NCBI GenBank assembly: GCA_040005235.1
Contig: JBDTZG010000003.1
Span: 160,001 to 224,000, forward strand
Direction of reading: 5' to 3'
DNA: 64,000 nt
Origin: Acidobacteriota bacterium
GTDB lineage: Bacteria > Acidobacteriota > Thermoanaerobaculia > Multivoradales > UBA5704
Part shown: positions 4,845-41,753 of the stretch, one piece after another
Position numbering within the stretch: the first letter of the stretch is position 1
Layout: each line of letters begins with the position of its first letter
The notes under the pieces: model-generated
Databases searched by the model: none
The model's input: the letters and a program-made list of their open reading frames with translations, nothing else
Told to the model about the DNA's origin: nothing
Program-made: the position numbers and the translations under genes

Positions 4845-6947
4845 TCAGGCCAGCGCGCCGCCTTTGCGGACCTCGGCGCGCAACTCCTCCACACGTTCGA
4901 GCGTCGTCCGCACCTCCGGCAGCTCGGCCATCTCTTCGAGGGTGTAGCGGGCCTTACGCTGCCAGTTCGGCCGCTCGACGTGGGTTCCCGGGACATTCTG
5001 CGGCCGGGTCTCCCCCCAGAGGTCTTCGAGGTTGACCAGGGCGATCGGCGCAGGGCTTGCGGCCAGGTGCTCGTGGAGCGCGAGGGAGACCTGGGAAAAC
5101 TTCTGGTCTTCCGGGATGCTCCCGCCGCGGGTGATCGCCACCGCGGTAGCGAGCCGCGTTCGCAGGCGGCCCCGACGCTCGCGATCGCGTGCCGCCACCT
5201 CGTCGTCGATCGCGCCCAGCGCCTGGAGGTCGGCGATCTCGGCGCCCTGCCAGTAGGAATGAAACGGCGGCATGTCATGGGTGTTCAAAGAAGCCGCGGT
5301 GTTGGCGGGCGGTTTGCGGATCAGCTCCGGACCGTCGGGGTCGAGCTCGTACTGGGCGACGAACAGGCCCATGATGTTGTGGCGTTCCATCGCCTCATAG
5401 ACCTCGGGGGCGACGGTGCCGAGGTTCTCGCCGACCAGCGCGGAGCCGTGGCGGTGCGACTCGATCGACAGCACGGCGTACAGCTCCTCGGCCGGGTAGG
5501 TGACGTAGACCCCCTCGGTCGCGGGCAGGCCGTTCGGCACCCAGAACAGGCGGTGGAGCTGCATCACGTGGTCGATGCGCAGGAGGCCCGCGTGCTCCAG
5601 GTGATGGCGCAGGCTCGCGATCAGATAGTCGTAGCCGCGCTCGCGTTGGCGCTCGGGGTGGATCGGCGGAAAGCCCCAGTCCTGACCCCCTTGAAACAGC
5701 GCGTCCGGCGGCGCGCCGGCAGAAGAACCCCGGGCGAACAGATCGGGAAAACGCCAGACGTCGAACGAGCTGCCGTGCACTCCGAGCGGCAGGTCGAGGT
5801 AGAGCCCCGGTCCGCGGGCGCGGGCGGAGGCGGCCAGCTCGGCGAGCTGCTGCTCCGCGGCCCACTGTGCATAGAGGTGATAGCGCACCGTCTCGGGAAG
5901 GAAATCGGCGTCGGCCAGGCGCCCCTCGCGCTCGGCTTCCGGCCAGCTTTGCCACGAGGTGCCGTGACGGTCGCCCACAGCGCGGAATTTGGCGTATTCC
6001 TGAAGGTACGGCTTGGTCTTCAAAAAGCGCTCGAACTCCGACCGGCGGCCGTCCGAAAGCGACAGGGTGCTCTTCGCCAGCTCGGCGAGGACGCTCCGCT
6101 TGAGCTTCGCTGTGCGCGCCCAATCGACCGAGCCCAAGGCTGCGAGCGCCGCCGCCTCGGCGAGAAAATCGGCGCTTTCGACCAGCGCGCGGGCGCTGGC
6201 CGATCCGGAAAACTCAGGCAGGCGGCGCGGATCGACATAGACCTCGTTCCAGAACAGGCGCGAGGCGGGGGCGTAGGGGCTCGGCTCGAACGGCTCGGAA
6301 CCGAGAAAGGTCGCGAGCAGCGGCAGGGTCGCGACCAGGCCACCGCCGTACTCGGCGAGCCAGCGCGCCAGGCGGTCGAGATCGGAAAAATCGCCCGCGC
6401 CCCAGCTGTCGGCGGTGCGCAGGGCGTAAAGCGGAAGAAAGCCCCCCCAAAGACCGCGCTGCCGCAGCTCGAAACTGCGGCGCGGCGCGGCGAGGATCAG
6501 GACCTTCGAACGCTCGCCACGCACCTCGATCGTCAGGTGGTGGTTGCCGACCGGCACCGATTCGACCACCGGCAGCAGAACTTCGCCGGGGACGGCGCCC
6601 GGCCGCAGGGTGGAGCCGTCGATCGAGGTCAGCCAGCGATCGCCGCTTTCGAGATCAAGCTGGCAGCCGAACGCCCCCGTCCCGGGCGGCAGGCGCAGCG
6701 GCACGTAGACTTCCTTGCCCTCCCAAGAAACGACCACCGGCGGCGCCAGCCGCTCGGCAAGCTCGCGGCGCCGCTCGGCCAGTGCGTCGGTCGCGTCGGC
6801 GCTCCGATCGATCGGAGCGCCGAGCGCCGCAAGCACGCCCAGCAACGCCTCGGGGCTCGCCTGGCGGTCGTGGTGCCAGGCGTCGCGATAGGCGGTCTGC
6901 ACGCCGTGCAGGCGGGCGAGCTCCAGCAGATCGGAGTCAGACGACAT
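4845..6947 (-). CDS. malQ: 4-alpha-glucanotransferase (GH77)
   Basis: SPYAPASR, YLDLPLG, GAPPD..GQDWGFP, LRIDHV, GENLG, NVPGT..NWQRK. Confidence 0.95.
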   Translation of the reverse strand: MSSDSDLLELARLHGVQTAYRDAWHHDRQASPEALLGVLAALGAPIDRSADATDALAERRRELAERLAPPVVVSWEGKEVYVPLRLPPGTGAFGCQLDLESGDRWLTSIDGSTLRPGAVPGEVLLPVVESVPVGNHHLTIEVRGERSKVLILAAPRRSFELRQRGLWGGFLPLYALRTADSWGAGDFSDLDRLARWLAEYGGGLVATLPLLATFLGSEPFEPSPYAPASRLFWNEVYVDPRRLPEFSGSASARALVESADFLAEAAALAALGSVDWARTAKLKRSVLAELAKSTLSLSDGRRSEFERFLKTKPYLQEYAKFRAVGDRHGTSWQSWPEAEREGRLADADFLPETVRYHLYAQWAAEQQLAELAASARARGPGLYLDLPLGVHGSSFDVWRFPDLFARGSSAGAPPDALFQGGQDWGFPPIHPERQRERGYDYLIASLRHHLEHAGLLRIDHVMQLHRLFWVPNGLPATEGVYVTYPAEELYAVLSIESHRHGSALVGENLGTVAPEVYEAMERHNIMGLFVAQYELDPDGPELIRKPPANTAASLNTHDMPPFHSYWQGAEIADLQALGAIDDEVAARDRERRGRLRTRLATAVAITRGGSIPEDQKFSQVSLALHEHLAASPAPIALVNLEDLWGETRPQNVPGTHVERPNWQRKARYTLEEMAELPEVRTTLERVEELRAEVRKGGALA

Positions 6948-7192
6948 GATGCGCGCTCTCCTCGAATTCGAGTCGATGTTATCCGGTTATCGCGTCCGTT
7001 CGAGCGAGCGCGCGAGGAGGTTCGCGGTGATCTGCGCGCCGAATTCGTGCCCGTCCAGGGCACCGCCCTCTCGGAAAAAGCTCTCGCTTCTACACCGAAA
7101 AGACCCCTAACTGCACAATAATCGGTTCAAACCCGTACAATAGGCGGCAGGAGCCTCCGGGCCACCCGGAAAACTTTTTCGCCGTAGTTCTT

Positions 7193-29257: not shown

Positions 29258-29544
29258 GGGTTCTGAGTCTCTCGAAATTGTCTGAGCGTTTCGGTCTTAA
29301 GTGCCGACAAATTCTAGCATAGCCGGCCTTTCAAGCGCCGAAAAGCCGGGGCTGCCGGTTACCTGCCGGCTCCTTGCCTCCATCCGACACGTTTCGCTCT
29401 CGTTTCTCGCGTTTCTCTTGGGAGGCACCGGCACCCTGGTGTTCTTCGCGCGAGCGCTGTGATAGACCTTTCACCACAACGTCCCCACTTGGAAGAAGGG
29501 AGCCTCGGCGCGACGCGCGTCCCAGGCGAAGGGTGCGATCAGCT

Positions 29545-31443
29545 ATGAATCATGTCCTGGCGATCAGCCTGGGGCCGGTCCAGGAGTTCCTCGCCGCGGC
29601 GCGCCGGACGCGCGACCTCTGGTTCGGCTCGTGGCTGCTCTCCGAGCTGGCCCGCGCGGCGGCGAAGGCGATCGAGGCGCGGCATCCGGGCAGCGTCATC
29701 TTTCCCGCCGCGGACGCGCTGGCCGACGGCGATGCCACGTTCGCCAACAAGATTCTCGCCCGCGTGCCGGACGATCCGGAGAGTGCGGCGGGAGCCGCGA
29801 TCGAGGCGCTCCAGAAACGGCGTGACGAGCTGCGCGAGATGGCGTTCAAGGCTCTCGGCGATCTGAAAGAAACCGAATTCCACCGCGCCGCCGCCGGGGC
29901 GCAGGTCTCCGACCTGATCGAGATCCAATGGGCGAGCGCTCTGGAGTTTGGCGGAGAAGCCGGCTACGCCGACGCCCGGCGGACCGCGGAAGGAGTGCTC
30001 GCGGCGCGCAAGAACCAGCGCGATTGGATTCAACCCCACTGGGGCGCACCGGTGCCGAAGTCCGCGATCGACGGCCTGCGCGAGTCGGTGATCGACGAGA
30101 AGCTCTTCGAAGGGAATACCGGTTGGGACGCCGAGCGGCTCTACAAAACCTTCGGCGTCGAGGGGGGCGAGCGCCTCGACGGTGTCTCGCTGCTCAAGCG
30201 CCTCGGCCGCCAGAGGGGTCGCCCCCTCGATCATCACTTCGCGAGCACCGGCCACATCGCGGCCTGGCCGCTGCTCGAACGGCTGAGGAAGCCAGGCGAG
30301 GACGAAGGCGCGCGGGCCAAGGTCAAAGTGGCGTGGGACCGCCTGAAAAGTGCGATCGTGGATTCTGGCGTCGACCTCCGCGATCATGAGGTTTACGCCG
30401 CTTCGGACCCTGCCGGAAACCGGGAGGAGCACCCGATCCTCGGCCGGCTGGACGGCAGCCTGCTGTTCGAGGGGCGCCTCGCCGATCTCTTCCGCGACCG
30501 GACGGAGGTCGACGCACAGGGGAAGAGGCGGCCGATCTCGGCGGCGGACCGTCGCCGGCTCGCCGCGAAGCTGCGCGGGGCGCTCGCCGATTTCCTCAAA
30601 GCCGCGGAGCTTCCCGCACCGCTCCCCTACTACGCGATCCTCCATGCCGACGGCGACCGGATGGGTTCCGCCATCGACCACCTCAAAGAGCTGCCGAGGC
30701 ATCGGGAGCTGTCGCAGCAGCTGACCGCTTTCGCGGTCGAGGCCCGGAGGATCGTCGAGGCGACACATCACGGCGAGCTGGTCTACGCCGGAGGCGACGA
30801 CGTGCTCGCCTTCCTGCCGTTGCACGAGGCGATTCCCTGCGCCCGCGCCCTGGCCGACACGTTTGCCGGGCTGCTCGAAGATTTTCCCGACGAGGACGAC
30901 GTCAAGCCGACGCTTTCGGTCGGCCTCGGCATCGCCCACTTCATGGCGCCGCTTTCCCGGACGCTCGAGTTGGCGCGCAGCGCCGAGAAGGACGCCAAGG
31001 CGGTCCCGGGCAAGAACGCGCTCGCGCTGCGGATCGACAAACGCTCCGGGCCGACGCTCCGCTTGGCCGGGAGCTGGACAACGATCGATCTCGATCTCGA
31101 AAACTTCGCGAAGCTCCACGCCCGGGACGAGATCTCGGACAAGGGGGGCTTCGACCTGCGCGAGCTGGCGCGCCTGATCGAAGGGAGCACCGGCGACGAC
31201 CGGAAGAACCTCGAAGATCTCGCCCAGAAGGAGGCGATCCGCATCCTCGCCCGCAAGCAGCCGAAGCATGGCCAGGACGCGGGGCACAGCGAAGCGGTGC
31301 GCAAGAGGCTGCGCGAGATCCTGGAGCGCTCGAAGTCGATCGCCGCGTTCGCCGACCGGCTGATCGCCGCGCGCCTGTTCGGCGAGGCCCTGGTGCAATC
31401 CGGCCGGCCGATTCCCCCGCTCGAACCCGAGGTTGTGGCATGA
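29545..31443 (+). CDS. cas10: Type III-B Cas10/Cmr2 (no HD domain, intact cyclase palm)
   Basis: SLGPVQEFLAAARRTRDLWFGSWLLS, YYAILHADGDRMG, YAGGDDVLAF; start ATG 29545. Confidence 0.95.
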   Translation: MNHVLAISLGPVQEFLAAARRTRDLWFGSWLLSELARAAAKAIEARHPGSVIFPAADALADGDATFANKILARVPDDPESAAGAAIEALQKRRDELREMAFKALGDLKETEFHRAAAGAQVSDLIEIQWASALEFGGEAGYADARRTAEGVLAARKNQRDWIQPHWGAPVPKSAIDGLRESVIDEKLFEGNTGWDAERLYKTFGVEGGERLDGVSLLKRLGRQRGRPLDHHFASTGHIAAWPLLERLRKPGEDEGARAKVKVAWDRLKSAIVDSGVDLRDHEVYAASDPAGNREEHPILGRLDGSLLFEGRLADLFRDRTEVDAQGKRRPISAADRRRLAAKLRGALADFLKAAELPAPLPYYAILHADGDRMGSAIDHLKELPRHRELSQQLTAFAVEARRIVEATHHGELVYAGGDDVLAFLPLHEAIPCARALADTFAGLLEDFPDEDDVKPTLSVGLGIAHFMAPLSRTLELARSAEKDAKAVPGKNALALRIDKRSGPTLRLAGSWTTIDLDLENFAKLHARDEISDKGGFDLRELARLIEGSTGDDRKNLEDLAQKEAIRILARKQPKHGQDAGHSEAVRKRLREILERSKSIAAFADRLIAARLFGEALVQSGRPIPPLEPEVVA

Positions 31444-32690
31444 ATGAAGGCGCGATTTTCCTCATCGAGCCGCGCGATCCGCTGATCGCCCGCGACGGCC
31501 GGCCCGCCCGGCTGGGCGAAGCGCTGGCCACCCTCCCCTTTCCGCCGCCGGGCATGATTGCGGGGGCGGCGCGCACGCGCATGGCCTCGATCGACGGGGC
31601 GTTTTCCTGTGCGGCGGAGGATCTCGACCGGCTGGTCGAAATCCCCGTCCACGGGCCGCTGCTCGCCGAGCTGAAAGAGGACGGAGATGGCGTGGCCTGC
31701 TGGTTCGCGCCGGCCCCACGCGACGCTGTGTTGTTCGGCGATGGATTCGGCGATGGAGTCGGCGGTGGAGTCGGCGACCCGGAGATTCCCACCCTCCGGC
31801 GGCTGGCACCGCGCCCGGTGCCGCACGGCGCGCTGGCCGGGGGCTTCCGCGGCGAAGGTACGCTGCCGGAAGGTTCCCTTCTGCCCGCGTTCGCCTCACC
31901 CGGCCCGGCAGGAAAGCCGCTCGCCCATCCGCCCGTCTTCTGGCGCTGGTCGAATTTCGCGGCCTGGCTCGGTGCCGAGGGGCAGATCGAACCCGCGCCG
32001 CTCGGCCTCGGCCGGATCGAACCGGAGCCGCGCGCCCATCTCGCGATCGAACCGGGCGGCCGGGTAGGGCTGGAGGGCCGGGTATTCGAGACCCTCGGCC
32101 TGCGCTTCCTCGCCGCGCTCCCCGGTGCCGGCCCGCTCGCGAAATTGGCGGTCCGCCGGCTCGCGCTGGGCCTCCGCACTCCCGGGGGCACAATCGGCGC
32201 GCGCCCGCTGGAGCTGCGCAAGGAACTCGCCCCTCTCGGCGGAGAGCGCCGCCTCGCCCGCTGGCGCCCGGCGACCGGCGCGTCTTGGCCGGCGCTGCCG
32301 CCGGAGATTCGAAAACGAATCGTCGAAACCCGCCGCGCGCGGATCGTCCTGCTCACCCCGGCCGAATTCGAAGAGGGCTCCCGACCCGGCTGGAACGGCG
32401 GCGAGATCCCCGGGCTGGCGGCGAGTGCAGGGGGAGTTACCGTAACAGTCCAAGCCGCCTGCGTGCCGCGCGCCGAGGTGGTCTCCGGCTGGGATCTCCG
32501 ACGCGGCAAGGCGAAGCCGACACGCCGTCTGGTCCCCGCCGGCAGCGTCTACTGGGTGGAGCTGTCCGGCACAGGAGACCTCGGCGCCTGGTGCGACGCG
32601 CTCTGGCTGCAACCGGCGAGCGATGCCGAAAGCGCCCGCCGGAACGGCTACGGGCTGGCGGCACTCGGCGTTTGGGAGGAGGAATCATGA
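31440..32690 (+). CDS. cmr3: Type III-B RAMP protein Cmr3
   Basis: IEPRDPLIARDGRP, PFPPP, LGGERR, LLTPA, VSGWD, VPAGSVY, GYG. Confidence 0.93.
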   Translation: MNEGAIFLIEPRDPLIARDGRPARLGEALATLPFPPPGMIAGAARTRMASIDGAFSCAAEDLDRLVEIPVHGPLLAELKEDGDGVACWFAPAPRDAVLFGDGFGDGVGGGVGDPEIPTLRRLAPRPVPHGALAGGFRGEGTLPEGSLLPAFASPGPAGKPLAHPPVFWRWSNFAAWLGAEGQIEPAPLGLGRIEPEPRAHLAIEPGGRVGLEGRVFETLGLRFLAALPGAGPLAKLAVRRLALGLRTPGGTIGARPLELRKELAPLGGERRLARWRPATGASWPALPPEIRKRIVETRRARIVLLTPAEFEEGSRPGWNGGEIPGLAASAGGVTVTVQAACVPRAEVVSGWDLRRGKAKPTRRLVPAGSVYWVELSGTGDLGAWCDALWLQPASDAESARRNGYGLAALGVWEEES

Positions 32691-34012
32691 GCCGCATCGC
32701 CCCACCTCTGCCGGAGGATCTGTCGACCGCGAGGAAGACGGTCCCCTGGGAACGCGAGATCGAAGTGCAGCTGATCACCCGTTTATTCGGGGGCGGCGCG
32801 AGACCGCGCGAGATCGACGAGCGCTCGTGGATTCGCCCCGCGGCGCTCAAATCGGCGCTCCGCTTCTGGTGGCGGGCTACGCACGCCCACCTTCCCGAGT
32901 ACGACTCGCTCAAGAAGCTCAAAAAGCAAGAGGATCTGCTGTTCGGCACCGCGGCGCGCTTTGGCAAGAAGAACGAGATTCTCGGCGGGCCGGGGTGGCT
33001 GTCGGTGGAGGTGTCAGCGGCGGGGGGGAGCCTGGTTCGAGAGGCGTACGACCCTAAGTCAAAGGCCGAGGCCGGCCGTTCCGTCGGGATTGCTTACTAC
33101 CCGGCAACGCCGCAGAAAGAGCAAGTAATCCGCCTTGGAGGGGTCGGGAAGGGAAAGGGGGTTCGGTCCCTGATCCGGCTCCGACTCGAACGACTCGACC
33201 AGGATGCCGTCGGAGAGATCCAGGAGGCCTTGAAAGCTTTCCTCCTGATGGGCGGGGTGGGAGCACGAACTCGGCGCGGCGCGGGATCTTTGGCGCCTGC
33301 GCACGAAGAGGCCGACATCCCGTGTTCCGCCCTAGAGATCGAGCGCTATTTCGCCGAATGGGTGAAAATCGATCCCTCCAGTATTCCGGCCGGAGTCTTC
33401 TCTCTCGCCAGAGCGCAGTGGGTTGTTACTGGGCGTAGCTATGCGACCGGTGAAGAGGCGCAGGAAGCGCTCCTTGATGTGCTGCGTGAGTTCCGCCAGA
33501 AGCGCCTTCACCCCAAGAATTGGGGCAAGGGCGACTATGGGCCAACCCGGTGGCCGGAGCCCTACGCGATTCGAATGGAAGTTGGGACCGGGTCTCATAA
33601 GACCAGCGAGGAACATCGTGAGCAGTTTCCACGCGGAATCCTCGGGCTCCCCATCGTCTTCAAGTTTCATGACAAGGACAAGAATGACCCAGGACGACAC
33701 ACGCTGGCCGGCGTACGAGAGAATGGCGAAGCCATCTCTCGCTTTGCGAGCCCTCTGCTGCTTCGTCCGATCAGAATCTGGCGGCAGGAGAAAGGTGAAT
33801 CGGTCAAAGAGTACCTGCCGGTCGCCTTGTTTACCGAACCGATCCTTCCCTCGGACACGCTTCCTCTCTTGGAGCCCACGCCCGCGGAGGAAGATCCACG
33901 GCCTACCCTTTCTGAGGCGCGCACTTTCTCCGAAACCTCCTTCGCCGAAGCGGCGAAGAACGCCGACCTGCTCGCCAAGCTGAAGACCGCTTTCCAAGAC
34001 GGTCTTCGCTAG
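32687..34012 (+). CDS. cmr1: Type III-B RAMP protein Cmr1
   Basis: LITRLFGGG, IRPAALKSALRFWWRA, GGVGARTRRGAGS, GLPIVF, RFASPL; start ATG 32687 overlaps the cmr3 stop. Confidence 0.92.
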   Translation: MSRIAPPLPEDLSTARKTVPWEREIEVQLITRLFGGGARPREIDERSWIRPAALKSALRFWWRATHAHLPEYDSLKKLKKQEDLLFGTAARFGKKNEILGGPGWLSVEVSAAGGSLVREAYDPKSKAEAGRSVGIAYYPATPQKEQVIRLGGVGKGKGVRSLIRLRLERLDQDAVGEIQEALKAFLLMGGVGARTRRGAGSLAPAHEEADIPCSALEIERYFAEWVKIDPSSIPAGVFSLARAQWVVTGRSYATGEEAQEALLDVLREFRQKRLHPKNWGKGDYGPTRWPEPYAIRMEVGTGSHKTSEEHREQFPRGILGLPIVFKFHDKDKNDPGRHTLAGVRENGEAISRFASPLLLRPIRIWRQEKGESVKEYLPVALFTEPILPSDTLPLLEPTPAEEDPRPTLSEARTFSETSFAEAAKNADLLAKLKTAFQDGLR

Positions 34013-34033
34013 AAGAAATAGAGGAAACTGCCC

Positions 34034-34975
34034 ATGCGCACCCGCCTCGTTCTCGTCCATGCGCTCACGCCGCTCCATGCCGGCACCGGCCAGGCGGCCG
34101 GGGCGATCGATCTGCCGATTGCTCGCGAGCGGCCGACCCACATTCCGATCGTGCCCGGCTCGTCGATCAAAGGGGCGTTGCGCGCCCGCGAAGAGGATGA
34201 AAATTGGCGCAAAGTAATCTACGGCCCAGAAACCGAGCTGGCCTCGGAACACGGGGGCGCCGTGCAGTTCTCGGACGTCCACACCGTCCTGCTGCCAGTC
34301 CGAAGCCTCGCAGGGACGTTTGCCTGGGTGACCTCGCGCTACCTTCTTTCGCGCTTCGCCCGCGACGCCCAGGAGGCGGACTTGGCGCTCAAACCGGCAC
34401 CGGCCGCCGCCCGGATGGACGCCTGCGTTCTTGTGCAGGGATCGGTCCTCAAGGTACCGCTAGACCAAACTCAAAGAGTGATCTTGGAAGATCTCGATCT
34501 CAAGCCGGCCCCGGACGCCTCTCCCGAAGCCGCGACCCTCGCCGCATACGCAGAGACCCTCGGACAGGCGCTCTTTCCGGATCCGCCGGAGGCTACGGCC
34601 GAGCAGAAAGCGGCGAACGCCGCGGCCCAGAAGGATCTGAGCGCCCGCCTCTGTCTGGTCCACGACGACACGATGTCCTACCTGCTCGAAGCGGCGACCG
34701 AAGTCTCGGCCCGGATTCGCCTTGATCCGAAAAAGAAGACAGTCGCCCGCGGCGCGCTCTGGACCGAAGAAGCCCTGCCCACGGAGACGGTGCTCGCCGG
34801 ACTCGCGGTCGCGAGCGCGGTGGAACGGGACAACAAGAAGTACATGCCCGCCGATCTCTTCGCGCAAATCGGCAAAGCCGCCAAAGGACTCGTCCAACTC
34901 GGCGGCAAGGCGACCGTCGGCCGGGGCAACTGCCGGGTTCTGATCGTGCCGGCCGCGGCGGGAGGTACAGAGTGA
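34034..34975 (+). CDS. cmr4: Type III-B RAMP protein Cmr4
   Basis: TPLHAGTG, IDLPIARE (catalytic Asp), PGSSIKGALR, LPVRS, LWTEE, QLGGKATVGRG. Confidence 0.96.
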   Translation: MRTRLVLVHALTPLHAGTGQAAGAIDLPIARERPTHIPIVPGSSIKGALRAREEDENWRKVIYGPETELASEHGGAVQFSDVHTVLLPVRSLAGTFAWVTSRYLLSRFARDAQEADLALKPAPAAARMDACVLVQGSVLKVPLDQTQRVILEDLDLKPAPDASPEAATLAAYAETLGQALFPDPPEATAEQKAANAAAQKDLSARLCLVHDDTMSYLLEAATEVSARIRLDPKKKTVARGALWTEEALPTETVLAGLAVASAVERDNKKYMPADLFAQIGKAAKGLVQLGGKATVGRGNCRVLIVPAAAGGTE

Positions 34976-35436
34976 CTCGTGAACAGACGCGCGCCACGCT
35001 CGCTTGGAAGCACGTCGTCGCGGTCGGGGACAAACATGGCAAGGACTCGCCCGGCCGCAAGACTTACGGCACGCTCGCCGGCAAGCTCCCTTCCCTCCTC
35101 CGCTCCGCCGGCTTTTGCCAGGCGGTCCATTTCCTCCGCTCACGCCGCAAGAAGGACGCGAAGCCGAATCAGCCCGACATGGCGGAGCTTCTGCTCGGCC
35201 ACCTCGCCGAGCAACTCGGCCAGGTAAGCCAAGGGATCGGCGCGGACATCGAGGCGCTCTGCAAGGCCGCCCGGGAGAGTCCTCTTCCCGTCTACCTCTG
35301 GCTGTCGCGCGAGGCGGTCGCCTGCGCCACCTGGTACGCGAGGCTCGCCAAATCCGAGCTGGAGGTCGAGCCGACCGACGACGCTCCGGAGGACAATGCG
35401 GCCGAGCCGGAGGCCAAGGCCGAGGCAGCGCCGTGA
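34972..35436 (+). CDS. cmr5: Type III-B small subunit Cmr5
   Basis: 154-aa helical protein between cmr4 and cmr6; LPSLLRSAGFCQAVHF, WYARLAK. Confidence 0.88.
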   Translation: MTREQTRATLAWKHVVAVGDKHGKDSPGRKTYGTLAGKLPSLLRSAGFCQAVHFLRSRRKKDAKPNQPDMAELLLGHLAEQLGQVSQGIGADIEALCKAARESPLPVYLWLSREAVACATWYARLAKSELEVEPTDDAPEDNAAEPEAKAEAAP

Positions 35437-36239
35437 GTCTCGAAGGCATCCAGAGTCGTCGGGGGATTTTCGCTCCGCTCAGAACGCCTCCGCCCACGGC
35501 GAATGCCGGGCTCTGGATCGAGAAATACGCCAAGGCGCTCGGTGGCACCGGCTCGCCCAAGGAGCATTTCGAAACGCTCTTTTCGGTGCTACCGGACGGC
35601 CGCCATCGCGCCCCCGACCTGCCTGCCGCCTACAGCGCCTTCTTCCATCGCTGGCGCGACCACCTGGGGATGCTGCCCCCGGCGACGATCTTCGCCCGCG
35701 CCTCGGCGAGCGGCCGGCTCGCGGTCGGCCTCGGCGCGGAGTCCACGCTCGAAACCTCGATCGCGCTCCATCACACCTACGGCGTGCCCTACCTGCCGGG
35801 CTCGGCGCTCAAAGGCCTAGCCGCCCACGCCGCGCGCGAGCGGCTCGATCCAGCCTGGAATCCGGAGGACCCGACCGGCCCCTACAACGTCGTTTTCGGC
35901 CGCCTCGAAGAGGCGGGCTTCGTCACCTTCCACGACGCGCTCTGGATTCCCGAGGGGAACGATCCCCGCCTGCCGCTCGACCTCGACGTGATGACCGTGC
36001 ATCATGGCGACTACTACGGCGCCGGCAAGACCCCGCCGACCGATTGGGACGATCCGAACCCGATCCCCTTCCTCTCCGCCCGCGGTTCCTATCTCCTAGC
36101 CCTCACCGGCCCCCCGGGCTGGATCGAAAAGGCGCTCGAAATCCTCACCGGAGCGCTGGCGGAAGACGGCCTCGGCGCCAAGACAGCGGCGGGGTATGGA
36201 CGGATGAAGGTCACGCGGGAAGAAGGGGTCGGGCGATGA
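35433..36239 (+). CDS. cmr6: Type III-B RAMP protein Cmr6
   Basis: RLAVGLG, ETSIALHHTYGVPYLPGSALKG, FHDA, DVMTVHH, DDPNPIPFL, GLGAKTAAGYG; GTG start overlaps the cmr5 stop. Confidence 0.95.
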   Translation: MSLEGIQSRRGIFAPLRTPPPTANAGLWIEKYAKALGGTGSPKEHFETLFSVLPDGRHRAPDLPAAYSAFFHRWRDHLGMLPPATIFARASASGRLAVGLGAESTLETSIALHHTYGVPYLPGSALKGLAAHAARERLDPAWNPEDPTGPYNVVFGRLEEAGFVTFHDALWIPEGNDPRLPLDLDVMTVHHGDYYGAGKTPPTDWDDPNPIPFLSARGSYLLALTGPPGWIEKALEILTGALAEDGLGAKTAAGYGRMKVTREEGVGR

Positions 36240-36991
36240 AGTGGCGTAGCTGGTTTTTCGGTCTAGTGGCATTGAGCGTCGCGCTCTTGGCCTCCTGGCT
36301 CTCGACGAAAGAGACCGTCCGCCCCCTCTATTCATTCTTCGACGGCACGGGCACCGTGATCGGTTGGTTCCTCTCCTGCCTCACCGTTCTGGTTGGCGTG
36401 GCCGCCTGGTTCGAACGTGCAGCCCTTCGAAGATGGCTCCTCAACCGCCAGTTTCCCCAAGTCGGCGACGACGTTAGAGACTGGCGGAGCCGGGTCGAGG
36501 CTCTGGTAATTCCGGTGAGCCCTCGGCGCGAGCAGCCGGAGTGGTTGATTCGCCATCTCAAGCCGTCTCACGTTTCTTTCCTTTACACCTCTGAATCCCG
36601 AGCGACCGCCGCCGGGCTCGCGAGGGATTTCGGATCTGAGAGCCTTGAGTTCTCGCCTTCCTATCATCAGATAGTCGCCGCAGCGAACGAGCTCAAGGAT
36701 CCCAACGATACGCGAGAAGCTCGCACTCAGACGAAATTGTTCCTCGAACGTTTCGACCGTCTCGGCATCCCCCCGAGCCGAGTCTTCGTCGATACGACTG
36801 CGGGCAAGGTGCCGACTTCGATCGGAGCCTTTCAAGCTGCCGAGGAAGCGGCTGTCGCAACGATCTATATTGTCGGCACAAAGAACGGATTAATTCAGGA
36901 CCCTGGAGATGCGAGCCATGGCCAGCCGAAGTTTGTAAGCAATCCGCTGGCTCGCTCCGAGGATCTTCCGGAAGCTCGCCGCCGCCCATGA
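36236..36991 (+). CDS. 2TM-CARF membrane effector (Cam1-like)
   Basis: ATG 36236 overlaps the cmr6 stop; two N-terminal TM helices then a CARF-like Rossmann fold (ALVIPVS..QPE, HVSFLYTSES, VFVDTTAGKVPTSIG); 251 aa. Confidence 0.8.
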   Translation: MKWRSWFFGLVALSVALLASWLSTKETVRPLYSFFDGTGTVIGWFLSCLTVLVGVAAWFERAALRRWLLNRQFPQVGDDVRDWRSRVEALVIPVSPRREQPEWLIRHLKPSHVSFLYTSESRATAAGLARDFGSESLEFSPSYHQIVAAANELKDPNDTREARTQTKLFLERFDRLGIPPSRVFVDTTAGKVPTSIGAFQAAEEAAVATIYIVGTKNGLIQDPGDASHGQPKFVSNPLARSEDLPEARRRP

Positions 36992-37269
36992 CCCTCGACC
37001 TCGCCCTCACCCACGAGCCCCTCTGGCGCGGCCTCGCGATCGAAAACCTGGCGGGCAAACTGACGCTCACGACACCCCCGGCCGTAGCGATTCCGGTGCT
37101 CGCCGCGAACCTTTCGGCGCTGGAAATCGACCCGGAGGAAGTGGTCCTCACCGGCGGCATGGCGATCTGGGCGTATCTGGTCGTGTTCCACCAACTCCAC
37201 GGCAGAACGCGGCGGATCGTCTACCGCGACGGCCGCGGGCAGGAGATCCTGGTGGCGGCGCACGGCTGA
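36988..37269 (+). CDS. csx3: Csx3/Crn3-like ring nuclease
   Basis: 93 aa; VVLTGGMAIWAYLVVFH...IVYRD...VAAH resembles Csx3 (VVISGRxPIWL..H...VAVYD...VV.SH); last gene of the cmr operon. Confidence 0.65.
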   Translation: MTLDLALTHEPLWRGLAIENLAGKLTLTTPPAVAIPVLAANLSALEIDPEEVVLTGGMAIWAYLVVFHQLHGRTRRIVYRDGRGQEILVAAHG

Positions 37270-37371
37270 GGGGCCACCCCGTAGCCCCGATCGAATGTAG
37301 AATCGCCCGCGTTCCTGCCGTTCTGCATGGTTCGAGGAGCTGGGTATTCAGTAAAGTAAAAGCAACCCTCG

Positions 37372-37569
37372 TGCCAGTTTTCAAGGCTGGGGGCGGAGAA
37401 ATGGGAGGGGGGTTGCGAACGGCGCCCGAAGTTGTTCCTTGACAATCAGTTAGCGAGGTTTCCGGGAGACGAAAAGGAAGCGAAGTGCAGCGTAAGCGAA
37501 GCGAAAGTCGAGAGGTAGCGAAAATCGAGCCCGCAACCGGCGTAGAATCAAGGCCTTGCAGAGGCGGCA
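37372..37569 (+). promoter_or_regulatory. CRISPR leader 1 with IHF-like site
   Basis: 198 bp near-identical to 39253-39450; AATCAAGGCCTTG (37546-37558) matches WATCAANNNNTTR, 11 bp before repeat 1. Confidence 0.85.
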
Positions 37570-38535
37570 GTCGGAACAGCCCTGATCTGGACGAAGGGAT
37601 TGCGACTTTCGTCTGGCATGCAATAGTCACGATTGACTTTTTGCGGGTCGGAACAGCCCTGATCTGGACGAAGGGATTGCGACTCGGCGAGCTCCTGGAG
37701 GGTCCAGAGGTTGTCTTTGCGCTCGTCGGAACAGCCCTGATCTGGACGAAGGGATTGCGACTGAGCTTGTCGCCTTCTTTTCGGTTCATCGCCATTTCGT
37801 CGGAACAGCCCTGATCTGGACGAAGGGATTGCGACTCCTGGCGACTGCCAAAGCACGGTAGTACCGCGATTCGTGTCGGAACAGCCCTGATCTGGACGAA
37901 GGGATTGCGACGAATCGACTTGCCGGGTGCCTGGTTGGGCGAGAGGTGGAGTCGGAACAGCCCTGATCTGGACGAAGGGATTGCGACCCCCACGTGTTGT
38001 CGTAGGTGGCGGGATGTTCGTATTTCCAGTCGGAACAGCCCTGATCTGGACGAAGGGATTGCGACATCGTGCCGAGCAGGATTGTGAAGAGCTGCGTTGG
38101 TCGAACGTCGGAACAGCCCTGATCTGGACGAAGGGATTGCGACGTAAAGCTTGGGCGAATCGGCATTAGAGGTCCCTGTAAGTCGGAACAGCCCTGATCT
38201 GGACGAAGGGATTGCGACTTCTTGAGTAACGCGAAGTTTCCGAGACCGAACCCAACGTGTCGGAACAGCCCTGATCTGGACGAAGGGATTGCGACGGGGA
38301 CGGGGATATGAACGAGGGTTCGTGTCACCACGATCTCCTCGTCGGAACAGCGAACAGCCCTGATCTGGACGAAGGGATTGCGACGCGAGCACCGACACAT
38401 AGAGGTCAAATGCGGACACAAAGGTCGGAACAGCCCTGATCTGGACGAAGGGATTGCGACTTCGTTGGTGGGAAGCGTTGGCAGTACCGAGTCAAAAGGT
38501 CGGAACAGCCCTGATCTGGACGAAGGGATTGCGGA
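37570..38535 (+). CRISPR. CRISPR array 1: 13 repeats, 12 spacers (37-45 bp)
   Basis: 37-bp repeat GTCGGAACAGCCCTGATCTGGACGAAGGGATTGCGAC at 37570, 37647, 37725, 37799, 37875, 37951, 38029, 38107, 38182, 38259, 38341 (7-bp duplication), 38424, 38499 (degenerate end); ATTGCGAC-type handle and degenerate last repeat support + orientation. Confidence 0.98.
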
Positions 38536-38549
38536 TCACCGATTTGCCG

Positions 38550-38870
38550 CGGGATCGGCCTTCCCTCCGCAGGGATCACCCTTCCCTCCGGCGGGATCAC
38601 TGTTTTTGGGCCAAAATCACTGTTCCTTCCAGCGGGATCACCGATTTTGGGCCAAAATCACTGTTCCTCCCGGAGGGATCACTGTTTTTGGGCCAAAATC
38701 ACTCTTCCCTCCAGCGGGATCGGTGATTTTGGGCCAAAATCGCTGTTCCTTCCGGCGGGATCACCGTTTTTGGGCCAAAATCGCTGTTCCTTCCCGGGGG
38801 ATCGGTGATTTTGGCGAAGGATCGCCCCTCCCCCGGGCCGGATCGCTGATTTTGGAGCGGGATCATCCTT
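38550..38870. repeat. 41-bp palindromic tandem repeat (5 good copies plus degenerate copies)
   Basis: GGGATCACTGTTTTTGGGCCAAAATCACTGTTCCTTCCAGC-like units at 38593, 38634, 38675, 38716, 38757, degenerate at 38798 and 38839. Confidence 0.92.
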
Positions 38871-38971
38871 GTCGGCGAGTCCGGGGGCACCCGCAGCCGG
38901 GACGATCGCATGACTCTGGCCTTTCGGCGACCGCGCGCTACCCTCCGTCGGCATTTATCGCGTCTTTCGAT

Positions 38972-39079
38972 GTGACCTCTCCCCTGCTCGCCGTCGGCAC
39001 CCAGCTCGAAGCGGTGCTCGATCGCGGCAACCTGATGGCGGCGTTCTCGAAGGTTGCGGAGAATTGCGGTTGCGCGGGA
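38972..39079 (+). pseudogene. N-terminal remnant of a group II intron-like / CRISPR-associated reverse transcriptase
   Basis: VTSPLLAVGTQLEAVLDRGNLMAAFSKVAENCGCAG matches the RT0 pattern NL..A...V..N.G.AG(xDG) and stops just before DG. Confidence 0.75.
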
Positions 39080-39224
39080 CCGCCTGCGCGAGCGTCTGAC
39101 TGCCAAGGTGGCGGAAGACGAGGACAGCGTGCGAATCTACCGCCTCTGCGCCGACTGCCGAGCGAAAGTCGAGATCCTCGGCCGCGGCGGGGTGACGGAA
39201 GATCCTGAGATCTACGTGATCTGA
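39078..39224 (+). pseudogene. cas2: C-terminal remnant of Cas2
   Basis: DRLRERLTAKVAEDEDSVRIYRLCADCRAKVEILGRGGVTEDPEIYVI*, a typical Cas2 C-terminus (DSVRIY.LC..C) with no start or N-terminal half; lies just before leader 2. Confidence 0.85.
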
Positions 39225-39252
39225 GTTCCTGTAGATAAAGCAGCAAGCGGCA

Positions 39253-39450
39253 TGCCAGTTTTCGAGGGTGGGGGCGGAGGAATGGGAGGGGGGTTGCGAA
39301 CGGCGCCCGAAGTGGTTCGTTGACAATCAGTTAGCGATGATTCCGGGAGACGAAAGGGAAGTGAAGTGCAGCGTAAGCGAAGCGAAAGTCGAGAGGCAGC
39401 GAATTTCGAACCCGCAACCGGCGTAGAATCAAGGCCTTGCAGAGGCGGCA
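39253..39450 (+). promoter_or_regulatory. CRISPR leader 2 with IHF-like site
   Basis: Colinear 198-bp copy of leader 1; AATCAAGGCCTTG at 39427-39439. Confidence 0.85.
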
Positions 39451-39872
39451 GTCGGAACAGCCCTGATCTGGACGAAGGGATTGCGACTCCGTCAGATTCA
39501 GATACGCCTCGTTAGGGGCATGGACCGACAAGTCGGAACTGCCCTGATCTGGACGAAGGGATTGCGACAGCCCCCGCCCCCTTCTTCTTCGACGGGGCCT
39601 CGAATGAGTCGGAACTGCCCTGATCTGGACGAAGGGATTGCGACTCGATCAAGCTCGACGGAAGCGGATCCTGCTGCCGAGTCGGAACTGCCCTGATCTG
39701 GACGAAGGGATTGCGACTTATTAGCAGGCATTCTCTCGCCAACCTTACTATCTCGGTCGGAACTGCCCTGATCTGGACGAAGGGATTGCGACTCATACGA
39801 CAACCACATCGTCAGGCCAATCACACTGTCCAGAGGTCGGAACTGCCCTGATCTGGACGAAGGGATTGCGAG
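39451..39872 (+). CRISPR. CRISPR array 2: 6 repeats, 5 spacers (36-44 bp)
   Basis: Repeats at 39451 (AACAG form), 39532, 39608, 39681, 39756, 39836 (AACTG variant; last one ends GAG). Confidence 0.97.
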
Positions 39873-39887
39873 GTCGTCGGCCTACAG

Positions 39888-39943
39888 CCCTCACCCCCTG
39901 GCCCCCTCTCCCATCCGCACTCCCGCCCGCCCGGGAGAGGGGG
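39888..39943. repeat. REP-like palindromic element
   Basis: CCCTCACCCCCTGG followed by an 11-bp inverted repeat CCCCCTCTCCC / GGGAGAGGGGG. Confidence 0.7.
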
Positions 39944-40093
39944 ACGTCGGCGAGGCGGCTTGCCGGAACGGACCTTTTAGGGCGGCGCGCGGGGTGGTTC
40001 CCTTCTGCCAGGAGGGAATGAGGGCTACCGGACGTTAGGTGGACGGCTGGCTGACGATTTCGATCCCGCGCGAGGGGAGGCGTCGATCGAAAA

Positions 40094-40381
40094 TCAGGCG
40101 AACTGGAGCACGAGCTCTTTGCCGCAGGCTTCCGCGTACTTCCGGAGAGTAGCCAGTGACGGCGAATGCTTCCCGGTTGCGAGAGCGCGCTCAAGTCGGG
40201 CCACCGCAGGCGGCTGAGTACCCATACGTTCGGCAACTTGGGCTTGAGTGAGACCGGCTTCGTGCCGCGCCTTCAAGAGAAGATCGAGGAGCGCCCCTTC
40301 TTCTCTCTCAATGCGCTCGACTTCCTTTCGGACGCCAGGTCGGCGCATGAGCTTGGAAACAATCTGGTCATGGGTTCGCAT
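40094..40381 (-). CDS. XRE-family HTH antitoxin (HigA-like)
   Basis: ARHEAGLTQAQVAERMGTQPPAVARLE..PSLATLRKYAEA; downstream of and overlapping the toxin gene. Confidence 0.88.
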   Translation of the reverse strand: MRTHDQIVSKLMRRPGVRKEVERIEREEGALLDLLLKARHEAGLTQAQVAERMGTQPPAVARLERALATGKHSPSLATLRKYAEACGKELVLQFA

Positions 40382-40700
40382 TCTTGACCTCCTTCATCCG
40401 CTTTCGCGCGATATCGATCTCTTTCAGCGGAGTTTTCTGTGTTTTCTTGATGAACGAGTGCAGCATCATGACTCGGCGACCGAGCAGCGTGCAGAAGAAG
40501 ACCCTTGCAATTCCTTCTTTTCCCTTCAAGCGGAGTTCGAAGAGGCCATCGCCGAAGGCGTCGGTGTAAGGCGGCCCTAGATTCGGTCCGATAGCCGTGA
40601 TGCGTCGCGTCAGGACAACGTACCGAGCGGCGAGGGTATCTGGAAGTTCGAGAATCCGCTCCTGAATCTCTTCGCCGTAGTACTCGATCGAGTAGTCCAC
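40368..40700 (-). CDS. RelE/ParE-superfamily toxin (HigB / Gp49-like)
   Basis: GPNLGPPYT..GDGLFELR..ARVFF..LHSFIKKTQKTP; start GTG 40700 or ATG 40712. Confidence 0.88.
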   Translation of the reverse strand: MDYSIEYYGEEIQERILELPDTLAARYVVLTRRITAIGPNLGPPYTDAFGDGLFELRLKGKEGIARVFFCTLLGRRVMMLHSFIKKTQKTPLKEIDIARKRMKEVKNANP

Positions 40701-40711
40701 GCCGACGAACA

Positions 40712-40725
40712 TAACAAGAATGTTA
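40712..40725. promoter_or_regulatory. Putative TA operator palindrome
   Basis: TAACA-AGAA-TGTTA immediately upstream of the toxin gene. Confidence 0.5.
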
Positions 40726-40793
40726 CTTCCGAGCAAGCCAGTCTGTTGAAGGATTTCGGAGCGCGAGTACAACTCTCAGAGGTACAAGCCCGA

Positions 40794-41753
40794 CTACGCC
40801 GCCTCGATCGCCAGCTGGCCGAGGCCGAAGACCGTTCCCTTGCCGACGTGTATCACCTCGGCCGCGCGCAGGAGGGGCGCGAGCGGTTCGAGATCGCCGC
40901 GGAGGTCGAGCGTGCCCTCGTAACCGCCGAGGGGAGTGTGGGTTTGCTGGCGCTGGCTGTAGCGCTCCACGTCGTGAAAGCGGAGATCGGTCCCCACGAC
41001 TTCGAGCGTTCCGGCGTGCTCTAGGAGCGGCTTGAACGTCCAGTCGATTGTTGAGTCCGGCGCATGGAAATGCGCCAGCTCCAGTAGGCGACGGATCATG
41101 GCGAACGCCAGCGCCCGCGGGCGATCCGGCGGCACCACGCGCTTGTGGTCGAGCAGGCGTACGGGGGTGACGAAACGCAGCCGCACGCGGTGGCCGTCGC
41201 CGGGCAGCGGTTCGTTCGGAAGCGGTGCGCCGCTCGGCGGGATCGGCTCGACCCCTGCGACCGCGAATTCCGCCTTGCGGCCTGCCACCGCCGCGCCGAG
41301 CCCTCCGGCTGCCAGACGCTCGACCGCGGCGAGTGCGTACCTTTGCAGCTCGATCGCCCGGCCGAACAGAAGCAGGTCGAAGCCGAGCGTCTCGCCTACG
41401 GCGAGGGTGGTGGTGGTGCTGCGCGGCTCGAATAGGTACGGGCGCGGCGCAGTCGTCACCCCGGCGAGAAAGCTCAGCGGCTCCAGCGGCTGCCCAGGGT
41501 TCGGCGTCTCGAAAATCCGCGGATAGGGGCACTCGCTTCGCAGCACGCAAGTAGGGCACGGCGCGTCCGGCCCGAAGCTGCAGACCGTCTTCCTTAGCGC
41601 GTGGCCGAAGGCACCGCGAAGAGTCGAGCCGTGAAACGGCGGCAGCCGCGCCGGGGTGAGCGCCCGAAGGGTGATCCGAAAGCGCGCATGGCGCAGCTCG
41701 GGCAGCACGTACGGAAGCCCGGCGCCTGAACCCGCCGTTTCGTTCGCGATCAC
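40794..41753 (-). CDS. cas6: CRISPR pre-crRNA processing endoribonuclease Cas6
   Basis: GSTLRGAFGHAL, Cys cluster (C..CPTC....ECPY), APRPY, FVTPVRL, RYSQRQ, G-rich loop HVGKGTVFGLG; GTG start overlaps the rsmA stop. Confidence 0.9.
   Translation of the reverse strand: MIANETAGSGAGLPYVLPELRHARFRITLRALTPARLPPFHGSTLRGAFGHALRKTVCSFGPDAPCPTCVLRSECPYPRIFETPNPGQPLEPLSFLAGVTTAPRPYLFEPRSTTTTLAVGETLGFDLLLFGRAIELQRYALAAVERLAAGGLGAAVAGRKAEFAVAGVEPIPPSGAPLPNEPLPGDGHRVRLRFVTPVRLLDHKRVVPPDRPRALAFAMIRRLLELAHFHAPDSTIDWTFKPLLEHAGTLEVVGTDLRFHDVERYSQRQQTHTPLGGYEGTLDLRGDLEPLAPLLRAAEVIHVGKGTVFGLGQLAIEAA

Follow-up and report, generated by a model that had tools for sequence, protein, structure and literature searches.

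Type III CRISPR-Cas loci without cas1 and cas2 are common. Others carry an RT-associated adaptation module, in which a reverse transcriptase (RT) is fused or adjacent to cas1 and is accompanied by cas2; examples are the III-B locus of Marinomonas mediterranea and the III-D locus of Vibrio vulnificus. Spacer uptake from RNA is reported for such modules (PMC5513706, PMC6821258), and an arrangement with RT and cas1 side by side is described as the likely initial step towards their fusion (PMC5513706). Our literature search returned no description of decay or remnants of an RT-cas1-cas2 module, a point on which supplementary locus tables may bear.

Here we analyse a type III-B locus in which the segment 38972-39224 is very probably (about 0.9 by our estimate, from sequence comparison) the scar of an RT/cas1/cas2 adaptation module that is whole at the same site in relatives. 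A preliminary description of this DNA had proposed such a scar, and the two fragments do align to opposite ends of the module, while the intervening stretch of about 2.0 kb is absent.

The type III-B locus around the scar

The locus occupies positions 29374-41726 of the window, by which we mean the whole 64,000-nucleotide stretch analysed (G000:C18:160001-224000). It consists, in order, of cas10/cmr2, cmr3, a cmr1-like gene, cmr4, cmr5, cmr6, a gene for a 251-aa protein, leader 1, array 1, tandem repeats, the RT/cas2 scar, leader 2, array 2, an HTH/Gp49-like pair and cas6 on the minus strand (Table 1). The six cmr genes and cas6 are uninterrupted open reading frames with Pfam or NCBIfam matches, covering the whole profile for cmr3, cmr4, cmr5 and cmr6 and a part of it for cas10/cmr2, cmr1 and cas6; the real start of the cmr1-like frame is probably further in. 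This set of open cmr genes, together with cas6 and the repeat arrays, is that of type III-B, and the locus presumably still makes crRNAs and attacks matching transcripts. The 251-aa protein, for which a Pfam search found no family, is possibly a CARF-like accessory protein, perhaps one that is bound to the membrane and belongs to the cyclic-oligoadenylate pathway. A second gene with no Pfam family lies at 36988-37269, between cmr6 and leader 1, and a toxin-antitoxin-type pair, comprising a Gp49-like gene (PF05973, E 3.5e-26) and an HTH_3 gene, is located between array 2 and cas6 (40094-40772, minus strand).

Table 1. Features of the type III-B locus and of the scar, in coordinates of the window
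Feature	Coordinates	Strand	Evidence and remarks
cas10/cmr2	29374-31443	+	Pfam Cas10-Cmr2_palm2 (E 4.7e-35) and Cmr2_N; TIGR02577 (E 9.4e-59); GGDD cyclase motif in translation
cmr3	31440-32690	+	PF09700, positions 1-367 of 367, E 5.9e-58
cmr1-like RAMP gene	32285-34012	+	RAMPs from residue 161, E 1.4e-17; TIGR01894, E 3.6e-8
cmr4	34034-34975	+	TIGR02580, positions 2-283 of 283, E 1.3e-63
cmr5	34972-35436	+	PF09701, positions 1-118 of 119, E 2.2e-17
cmr6	35004-36239	+	TIGR01898, positions 6-195 of 195, E 6.5e-37; match in last ~170 residues, start uncertain
251-aa protein with hydrophobic N-terminus	36236-36991	+	weak TIGR02710 (CARF-like) match, E 8.9e-5, under cut-off
leader 1	37361-37569	+	direct repeat 37361-37607 versus 39242-39488, 247 nt, 93% identical
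CRISPR array 1	37570-38535	+	13 repeats of 37 nt; last repeat degenerate; one with internal 7-nt duplication
tandem repeats, 41 bp	38534-38861		~6-8 units, 5.9 by Tandem Repeats Finder; between array 1 end and RT start
RT remnant	38972-39079	+	first 36 codons, GTG start, N-terminal to RVT_1; homology to RT of relatives
deletion junction	39074-39078	+	RT homology certain to 39073, cas2 from 39078 (DNA versus four relatives)
cas2 remnant	39078-39224	+	codons 44-91 and stop; PF09827, TIGR01573, tblastn
leader 2	39242-39450	+	homology to leader 1 begins at 39242
CRISPR array 2	39451-39872	+	6 repeats; first has the array-1 sequence, other five have T at repeat position 9
cas6	40794-41726	-	PF10040, E 4.2e-14; TIGR01877, E 8.5e-6

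The III-B repeat was found only within the window when the genome assembly was searched. Its 3' end reads ...ATTGCGAC, which we take to be the known type III 8-nt 5' crRNA tag. The five older repeats of array 2 have T for A at position 9, and the leader-proximal one matches array 1. The 247-nt leader repeat takes in the first repeat of each array, and this shared first repeat, together with the 93% identity of the leaders, suggests past recombination or conversion between the leader ends of arrays 1 and 2. In the tandem repeats between array 1 and the scar, the central 41-bp units each hold a near-palindrome, ATTTTGG-G-CCAAAAT; at the equivalent position, G002:C81 and G003:C66 have 21/42-bp tandem repeats of other sequence (L019 2218-2713; L025 ~6780-7000). 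The 41-bp repeats may bind a protein or may be what is left of an earlier repeat structure.

One of the 17 spacers, the third of array 2 (39645-39680), matches the own genome, at G000:C122:108118-108154 (36 of 37 positions, one gap). The target lies inside a minus-strand gene that, by reading of its translation, resembles an S4-domain pseudouridine synthase. Because the spacer has mRNA sense, transcription from the leader would yield a crRNA unable to pair with this mRNA. Judged by this match, the spacer shows that the putative module once took up self sequence. In the two sequencing runs considered below, X1 and X2, the contigs touching 39641-39680 are the pseudouridine-synthase-like gene and not the array.

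Remnants of the RT gene and of cas2

The translation of 38972-39079 is VTSPLLAVGTQLEAVLDRGNLMAAFSKVAENCGCAG. It is 58-69% identical to the N-termini of the RTs that four same-genus loci have at this position, 37% identical to the intact RT of G032 and 28% identical to the group II intron RT of the same genome. A tblastn search with the RT of G004:C23 placed residues 7-36 at 38990-39079 (70% identity, E 6.8e-7), and the DNA is 75-79% identical to that of relatives over 121-145 bp. The 36-residue piece has no Pfam or NCBIfam match because it ends before the RVT_1 domain, which begins at residue 69-75 of the RT in intact relatives; its assignment comes entirely from the relatives. Only residues 1-36 are kept, with N-terminal homology to cas1-adjacent RTs; RVT_1 with the catalytic YADD is absent, as is a cas1 neighbour in the window. 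By homology, then, 38972-39079 is the remnant of a CRISPR RT and not a working member of that family. Elsewhere in the assembly, a group II intron-type RT that is 40% identical to the CRISPR RT is found in a 410-residue frame at a contig end (G000:C11:95117-95941), and among the matches listed the relatives have many multi-copy RT frames of 457 residues of a similar kind.

For the second fragment, the frame 39054-39224 matched PF09827 at positions 44-73 of 74 (E 6e-4; 20.4 bits, under the curated cut-off of 23.8) and TIGR01573 at positions 48-88 of 96 (E 1.9e-5; 24.8 bits, cut-off 24.5). With the Cas2 of G004:C23 as the query, tblastn placed residues 44-91 of 91 at 39078-39221 (58% identity, E 1.8e-14), and identity to two same-genus Cas2 proteins is 71%. 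The C-terminal half of Cas2 is thus present, and the complete ferredoxin-like fold, with its N-terminal strand and Asp, is not; relative to the relatives, Cas2 residues 1-43 are absent from the window. We know of no activity for a Cas2 half that lacks this strand and Asp. The stop codon is at 39222-39224, and homology to leader 1 starts 18 bases downstream. The RT frame from 38972 and the Cas2 frame from 39054 differ, and the two tblastn segments abut at 39078/39079. The preliminary description had recognised 36 RT codons joined out of frame, near 39078, to the last 48 codons of cas2, with the end of cas2 immediately before leader 2. All of these points were borne out.

Two open frames run through the scar, a 78-codon frame in the RT phase (38972-39208) and the 56-codon Cas2 C-terminal frame (39054-39224), so that the remnant could in principle still be functional, either as a small protein or with the 3' end of cas2 serving as a promoter or extended leader of array 2. 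At least 14 loci of the family keep only a 3' part of cas2 beside the leader (N-terminal limits at residues 11-63). However, this count is biased because a deletion into the leader leaves nothing for a Cas2 search to find, and leader 1, which is 93% identical, has no cas2 piece upstream. A scan of 37200-40100, in itself uninformative, found no promoter-like site, and three terminator-like sites against 2.3 expected. We regard a function of the remnant as quite improbable. The narrower idea that the 3' end of cas2 is kept for leader function was dropped, on account of the ascertainment bias and of leader 1, which lacks such a piece.

The ancestral module in relatives and the size of the loss

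The DNA of 38860-39460 was compared with 60 relatives and G000 itself, and the matched loci were then searched with the proteins of G004:C23. Matches were obtained in 20 of the 61 genomes, including five of the seven other genomes of the genus. The relatives' group is Thermoanaerobaculia / Thermoanaerobaculaceae, Acidobacteriota. The fullest same-genus locus, G004:C23, has the order array, RT, cas1, cas2, leader, array; RT, cas1 and cas2 matches are found in the same order in G006:C259, G002:C81, G032:C1 and others, and a repeat scan of four same-genus loci confirmed that arrays flank the genes in each of them. In G032:C1 the three genes are whole (RT 313 aa, Cas1 330 aa, Cas2 91 aa), with full-length RVT_1, Cas_Cas1 and CRISPR_Cas2 matches. 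The best NCBIfam model for this RT is a group II intron RT/maturase (E 2.2e-75, positions 2-269 of 353, under cut-off). RT and cas1 do not share a reading frame; they are two genes, with matches that overlap by 16 nt in G032, and they are likewise separate in G004:C23. The window lacks reference positions 150-2173 of G004:C23, i.e. 2,024 bp, which take in RT residues 37-326, with every catalytic motif, the whole of cas1 and the first 43 residues of Cas2; relative to G032, 1,972 bp are absent. A TBLASTN search, suggested in the preliminary description, yielded intact relatives, and DNA comparison mapped the breakpoint to 39074-39078. The same description had spoken of an RT-(Cas1)-Cas2 module; the set of RT, cas1 and cas2 stands, and a fusion of RT with Cas1 does not, since the two are separate overlapping genes in this lineage.

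The most probable history, in our view, is as follows. The locus once had a spacer-acquisition operon of its own, with a group II intron-like RT gene followed by cas1 and cas2, which lay after array 1 and before leader 2. About 2.0 kb of it was lost, in a single deletion or in several, and codon 36 of RT came to abut codon 44 of cas2 in another frame. No catalytic motif of the RT, nothing of cas1 and none of the N-terminal half of Cas2 survived, and the two fragments cannot encode functional proteins. What remains is the cmr genes, cas6, and the two leaders with their arrays, and the locus presumably has no integrase of its own for new spacers.

The preliminary description had favoured a single deletion. 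What can be read is a net loss of about 2.0 kb, which does not demonstrate one event, and G002:C81 shows that modules of this kind can have two lesions. Indeed, the two separate deletions of G002:C81 fit a stepwise shrinkage of the window's module, for instance through a state like that of G006:C323 (see below), of which the window is only 408 bp short, at the same point; however, we found no close relative with an intermediate, and the nearest genome, G003, is without any remnant. As a further possibility, a unit of cas2 3' end, leader and array could have moved beside an unrelated RT stub, since a cas2 3' end and leader without an RT piece occur in G004:C169, G004:C79 and a second site of G006:C259. 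Both stubs of the window, however, sit exactly at the module ends, as in the relatives, so that no rearrangement is needed. We consider such a composite or stepwise origin rather unlikely, and retain loss by internal deletion from a module at this site as the preferred reading.

As to microhomology at the junction, the relatives have short G+C-rich strings (GCGG, GAC) close to the two end points, from which we draw no conclusion because the ancestral sequence is beyond reconstruction at 70-80% divergence.

Support for the junction

The assembly is of the metagenome type, in 140 contigs, and CRISPR regions assemble poorly, so that the start of RT could have been wrongly joined to the end of cas2 with the intact module present in the real genome. 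However, two Logan contigs cross the junction without a difference, one of 807 nt from run X1 (38504-39310) and one of 704 nt from run X2 (38567-39270), and neither the X1 nor the X2 contigs contain an alternative continuation at this point. RT and cas2 have no common sequence that could cause a collapse, and relatives have comparable real deletions with other end points, also in near-closed genomes. Because contigs of two samples span the junction with no difference, we dismiss a mis-join, which we hold to be extremely improbable. A check of sequence across the join, recommended in the preliminary description, therefore came out in favour of the junction at the level of contigs and of runs from one study: X1 may itself be the source sample, and the two runs share a study, so that the support is good and partly independent, and assembled contigs drop rare variants, so that an intact haplotype in the minority could be missed. 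In run X4, a contig of a related organism agrees with 39040-39073 and from there reads on into the next RT residues.

Lesions of the module in the genus and family

Other loci of the genus are also damaged. In G004:C23, RT and Cas2 are full and cas1 is split over frames with a TAG. G002:C81 has lost 807 bp, most of RT, and another 67 bp within cas1. In G006:C259, a gap of 945 bp begins at RT residue 211 and reaches the C-terminal part of Cas1, with a 2-nt overlap of the two aligned sides. In G006:C323, 1,623 bp are gone, and RT residues 1-123 are fused in frame to the whole of cas2. These four loci have lesions with end points unlike that of the window, and only cas2 pieces are found in G004:C169, G004:C79, G004:C25, G002:C44 and the second G006:C259 site. 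In total, the genus has nine loci in four of eight genomes, none of them uninterrupted, and every mapped end point is different. The chimaera of G006:C323 (L018 1157-1819) is an open frame of 240 residues, which may still supply Cas2. The closest genome, G003, whose flanking genes are 92-95% identical, has the syntenic locus, and no RT or cas2 remnant was found in it; G003 was therefore dropped as an intact reference and for dating the loss.

We also searched 92 genomes of the family with the proteins of G032 and tallied the match tables by hand. Among the matches listed, full-length Cas1 of the G032 type is present at 13 loci, and partial or split Cas1 at 22 loci, some of which may be cut by contig ends, while lesions that consist of a frameshift only (G009, G004:C23, G087:C19, G070:C33) may be long-read sequencing errors. 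At least eight modules are fully intact (G032, G113, G020, G083, G073, G094:C27, G081 and G089); among the other five of the 13, G105 and G013 have a full-length Cas1 with an RT that is truncated or internally deleted. Many further loci hold just RT and/or cas2 pieces. The tally covers neither Cas1 at 31-52% identity (other types, including the C68 type, G018:C3 and the RT-linked loci in G087:C12, G013:C2 and G084:C44) nor RTs that match at 32-43% identity, which are those of group II introns and others. The RT-linked cas1 of these three loci is of a different type (G084:C44:99249-101036, G013:C2:96048-100053 and G087:C12:56469-60441; 31-43% identity to the G032 proteins). At one of them, the RT and Cas1 matches lie in a single frame of 943 residues, which would be a true RT-Cas1 fusion.

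The scar itself is ordinary gene decay of a known kind, and the erosion across the family is more interesting. If the module was knocked out repeatedly by independent internal deletions while Cmr and the arrays were kept, there could have been repeated selection against RNA-templated uptake. We find this arguable but doubtful, because neutral decay and inheritance could give the same pattern. If the selection reading were true, the cost would perhaps come from capture of the cell's own transcripts, and the spacer at 39645-39680 would be a fossil of such self capture.

What remains for adaptation in the genome

The preliminary description had noted that no cas1 is in the window and had advised a search of the rest of the genome for cas1 and cas2. 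The sole Cas1 match of the assembly, and its sole Cas2 match above the cut-off, are located on contig C68, so that the first statement holds for the III-B locus and the search returned a single pair. This pair adjoins 20 copies of a 32-nt repeat, unrelated to the III-B repeat, and we take the locus to be type I-C-like from its repeat type. Although it is in the same genome and holds the assembly's only intact cas1 and cas2, its Cas1 and Cas2 are only 35% and 48% identical, respectively, to the III-B-type proteins of G032. The assembly (6.2 Mb, 100% marker completeness) is in 140 contigs, so that an unassembled copy of the module is conceivable.

Since the effector genes and arrays look whole and the only cas1-cas2 pair is elsewhere, with an unrelated repeat, the III-B locus is likely interference-only, with frozen arrays. 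We infer, from the lack of a cognate cas1-cas2 pair in the assembly, that the III-B arrays can no longer grow, unless the C68 proteins should act on them in trans. The difference in the first repeat of array 2 and the 7-nt duplication in a repeat of array 1 are weak signs for static arrays, and the leader-end stretch of array 2 (39460-39567) shows no difference in X2, this being one stretch in one second sample. For the organism the consequence would be modest, with the III-B memory probably fixed at 17 spacers.

Comparison with known systems

The relatives can be ordered in a natural series that begins with intact modules, continues with loss of RT alone and with lesions of cas1, and ends with bare stubs of cas2; such a series could address whether RT-assisted spacer uptake is costly and repeatedly shed. 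The intact modules with separate RT and cas1 genes, e.g. those of G032 and G089, are candidates for an assay.

Like the RT-associated type III modules described so far, the lineage has an RT of the group II intron type beside cas1 and cas2, in a III-B locus with cas6. Unlike the RT-Cas1 fusions, its RT and cas1 are separate overlapping genes, known at present from their sequences; and, unlike the RT-associated modules in general, the window keeps 36 codons of RT and 48 codons of cas2, with cas1 gone. With the type III loci that have no cas1 and cas2 it shares effector genes and arrays without adaptation genes of its own. How such loci come to lack these genes is usually invisible. In contrast to them, the window retains a readable scar with a mapped junction beside an effector side that is whole, and the route to this state, probably an internal deletion rather than an original absence, is therefore visible.
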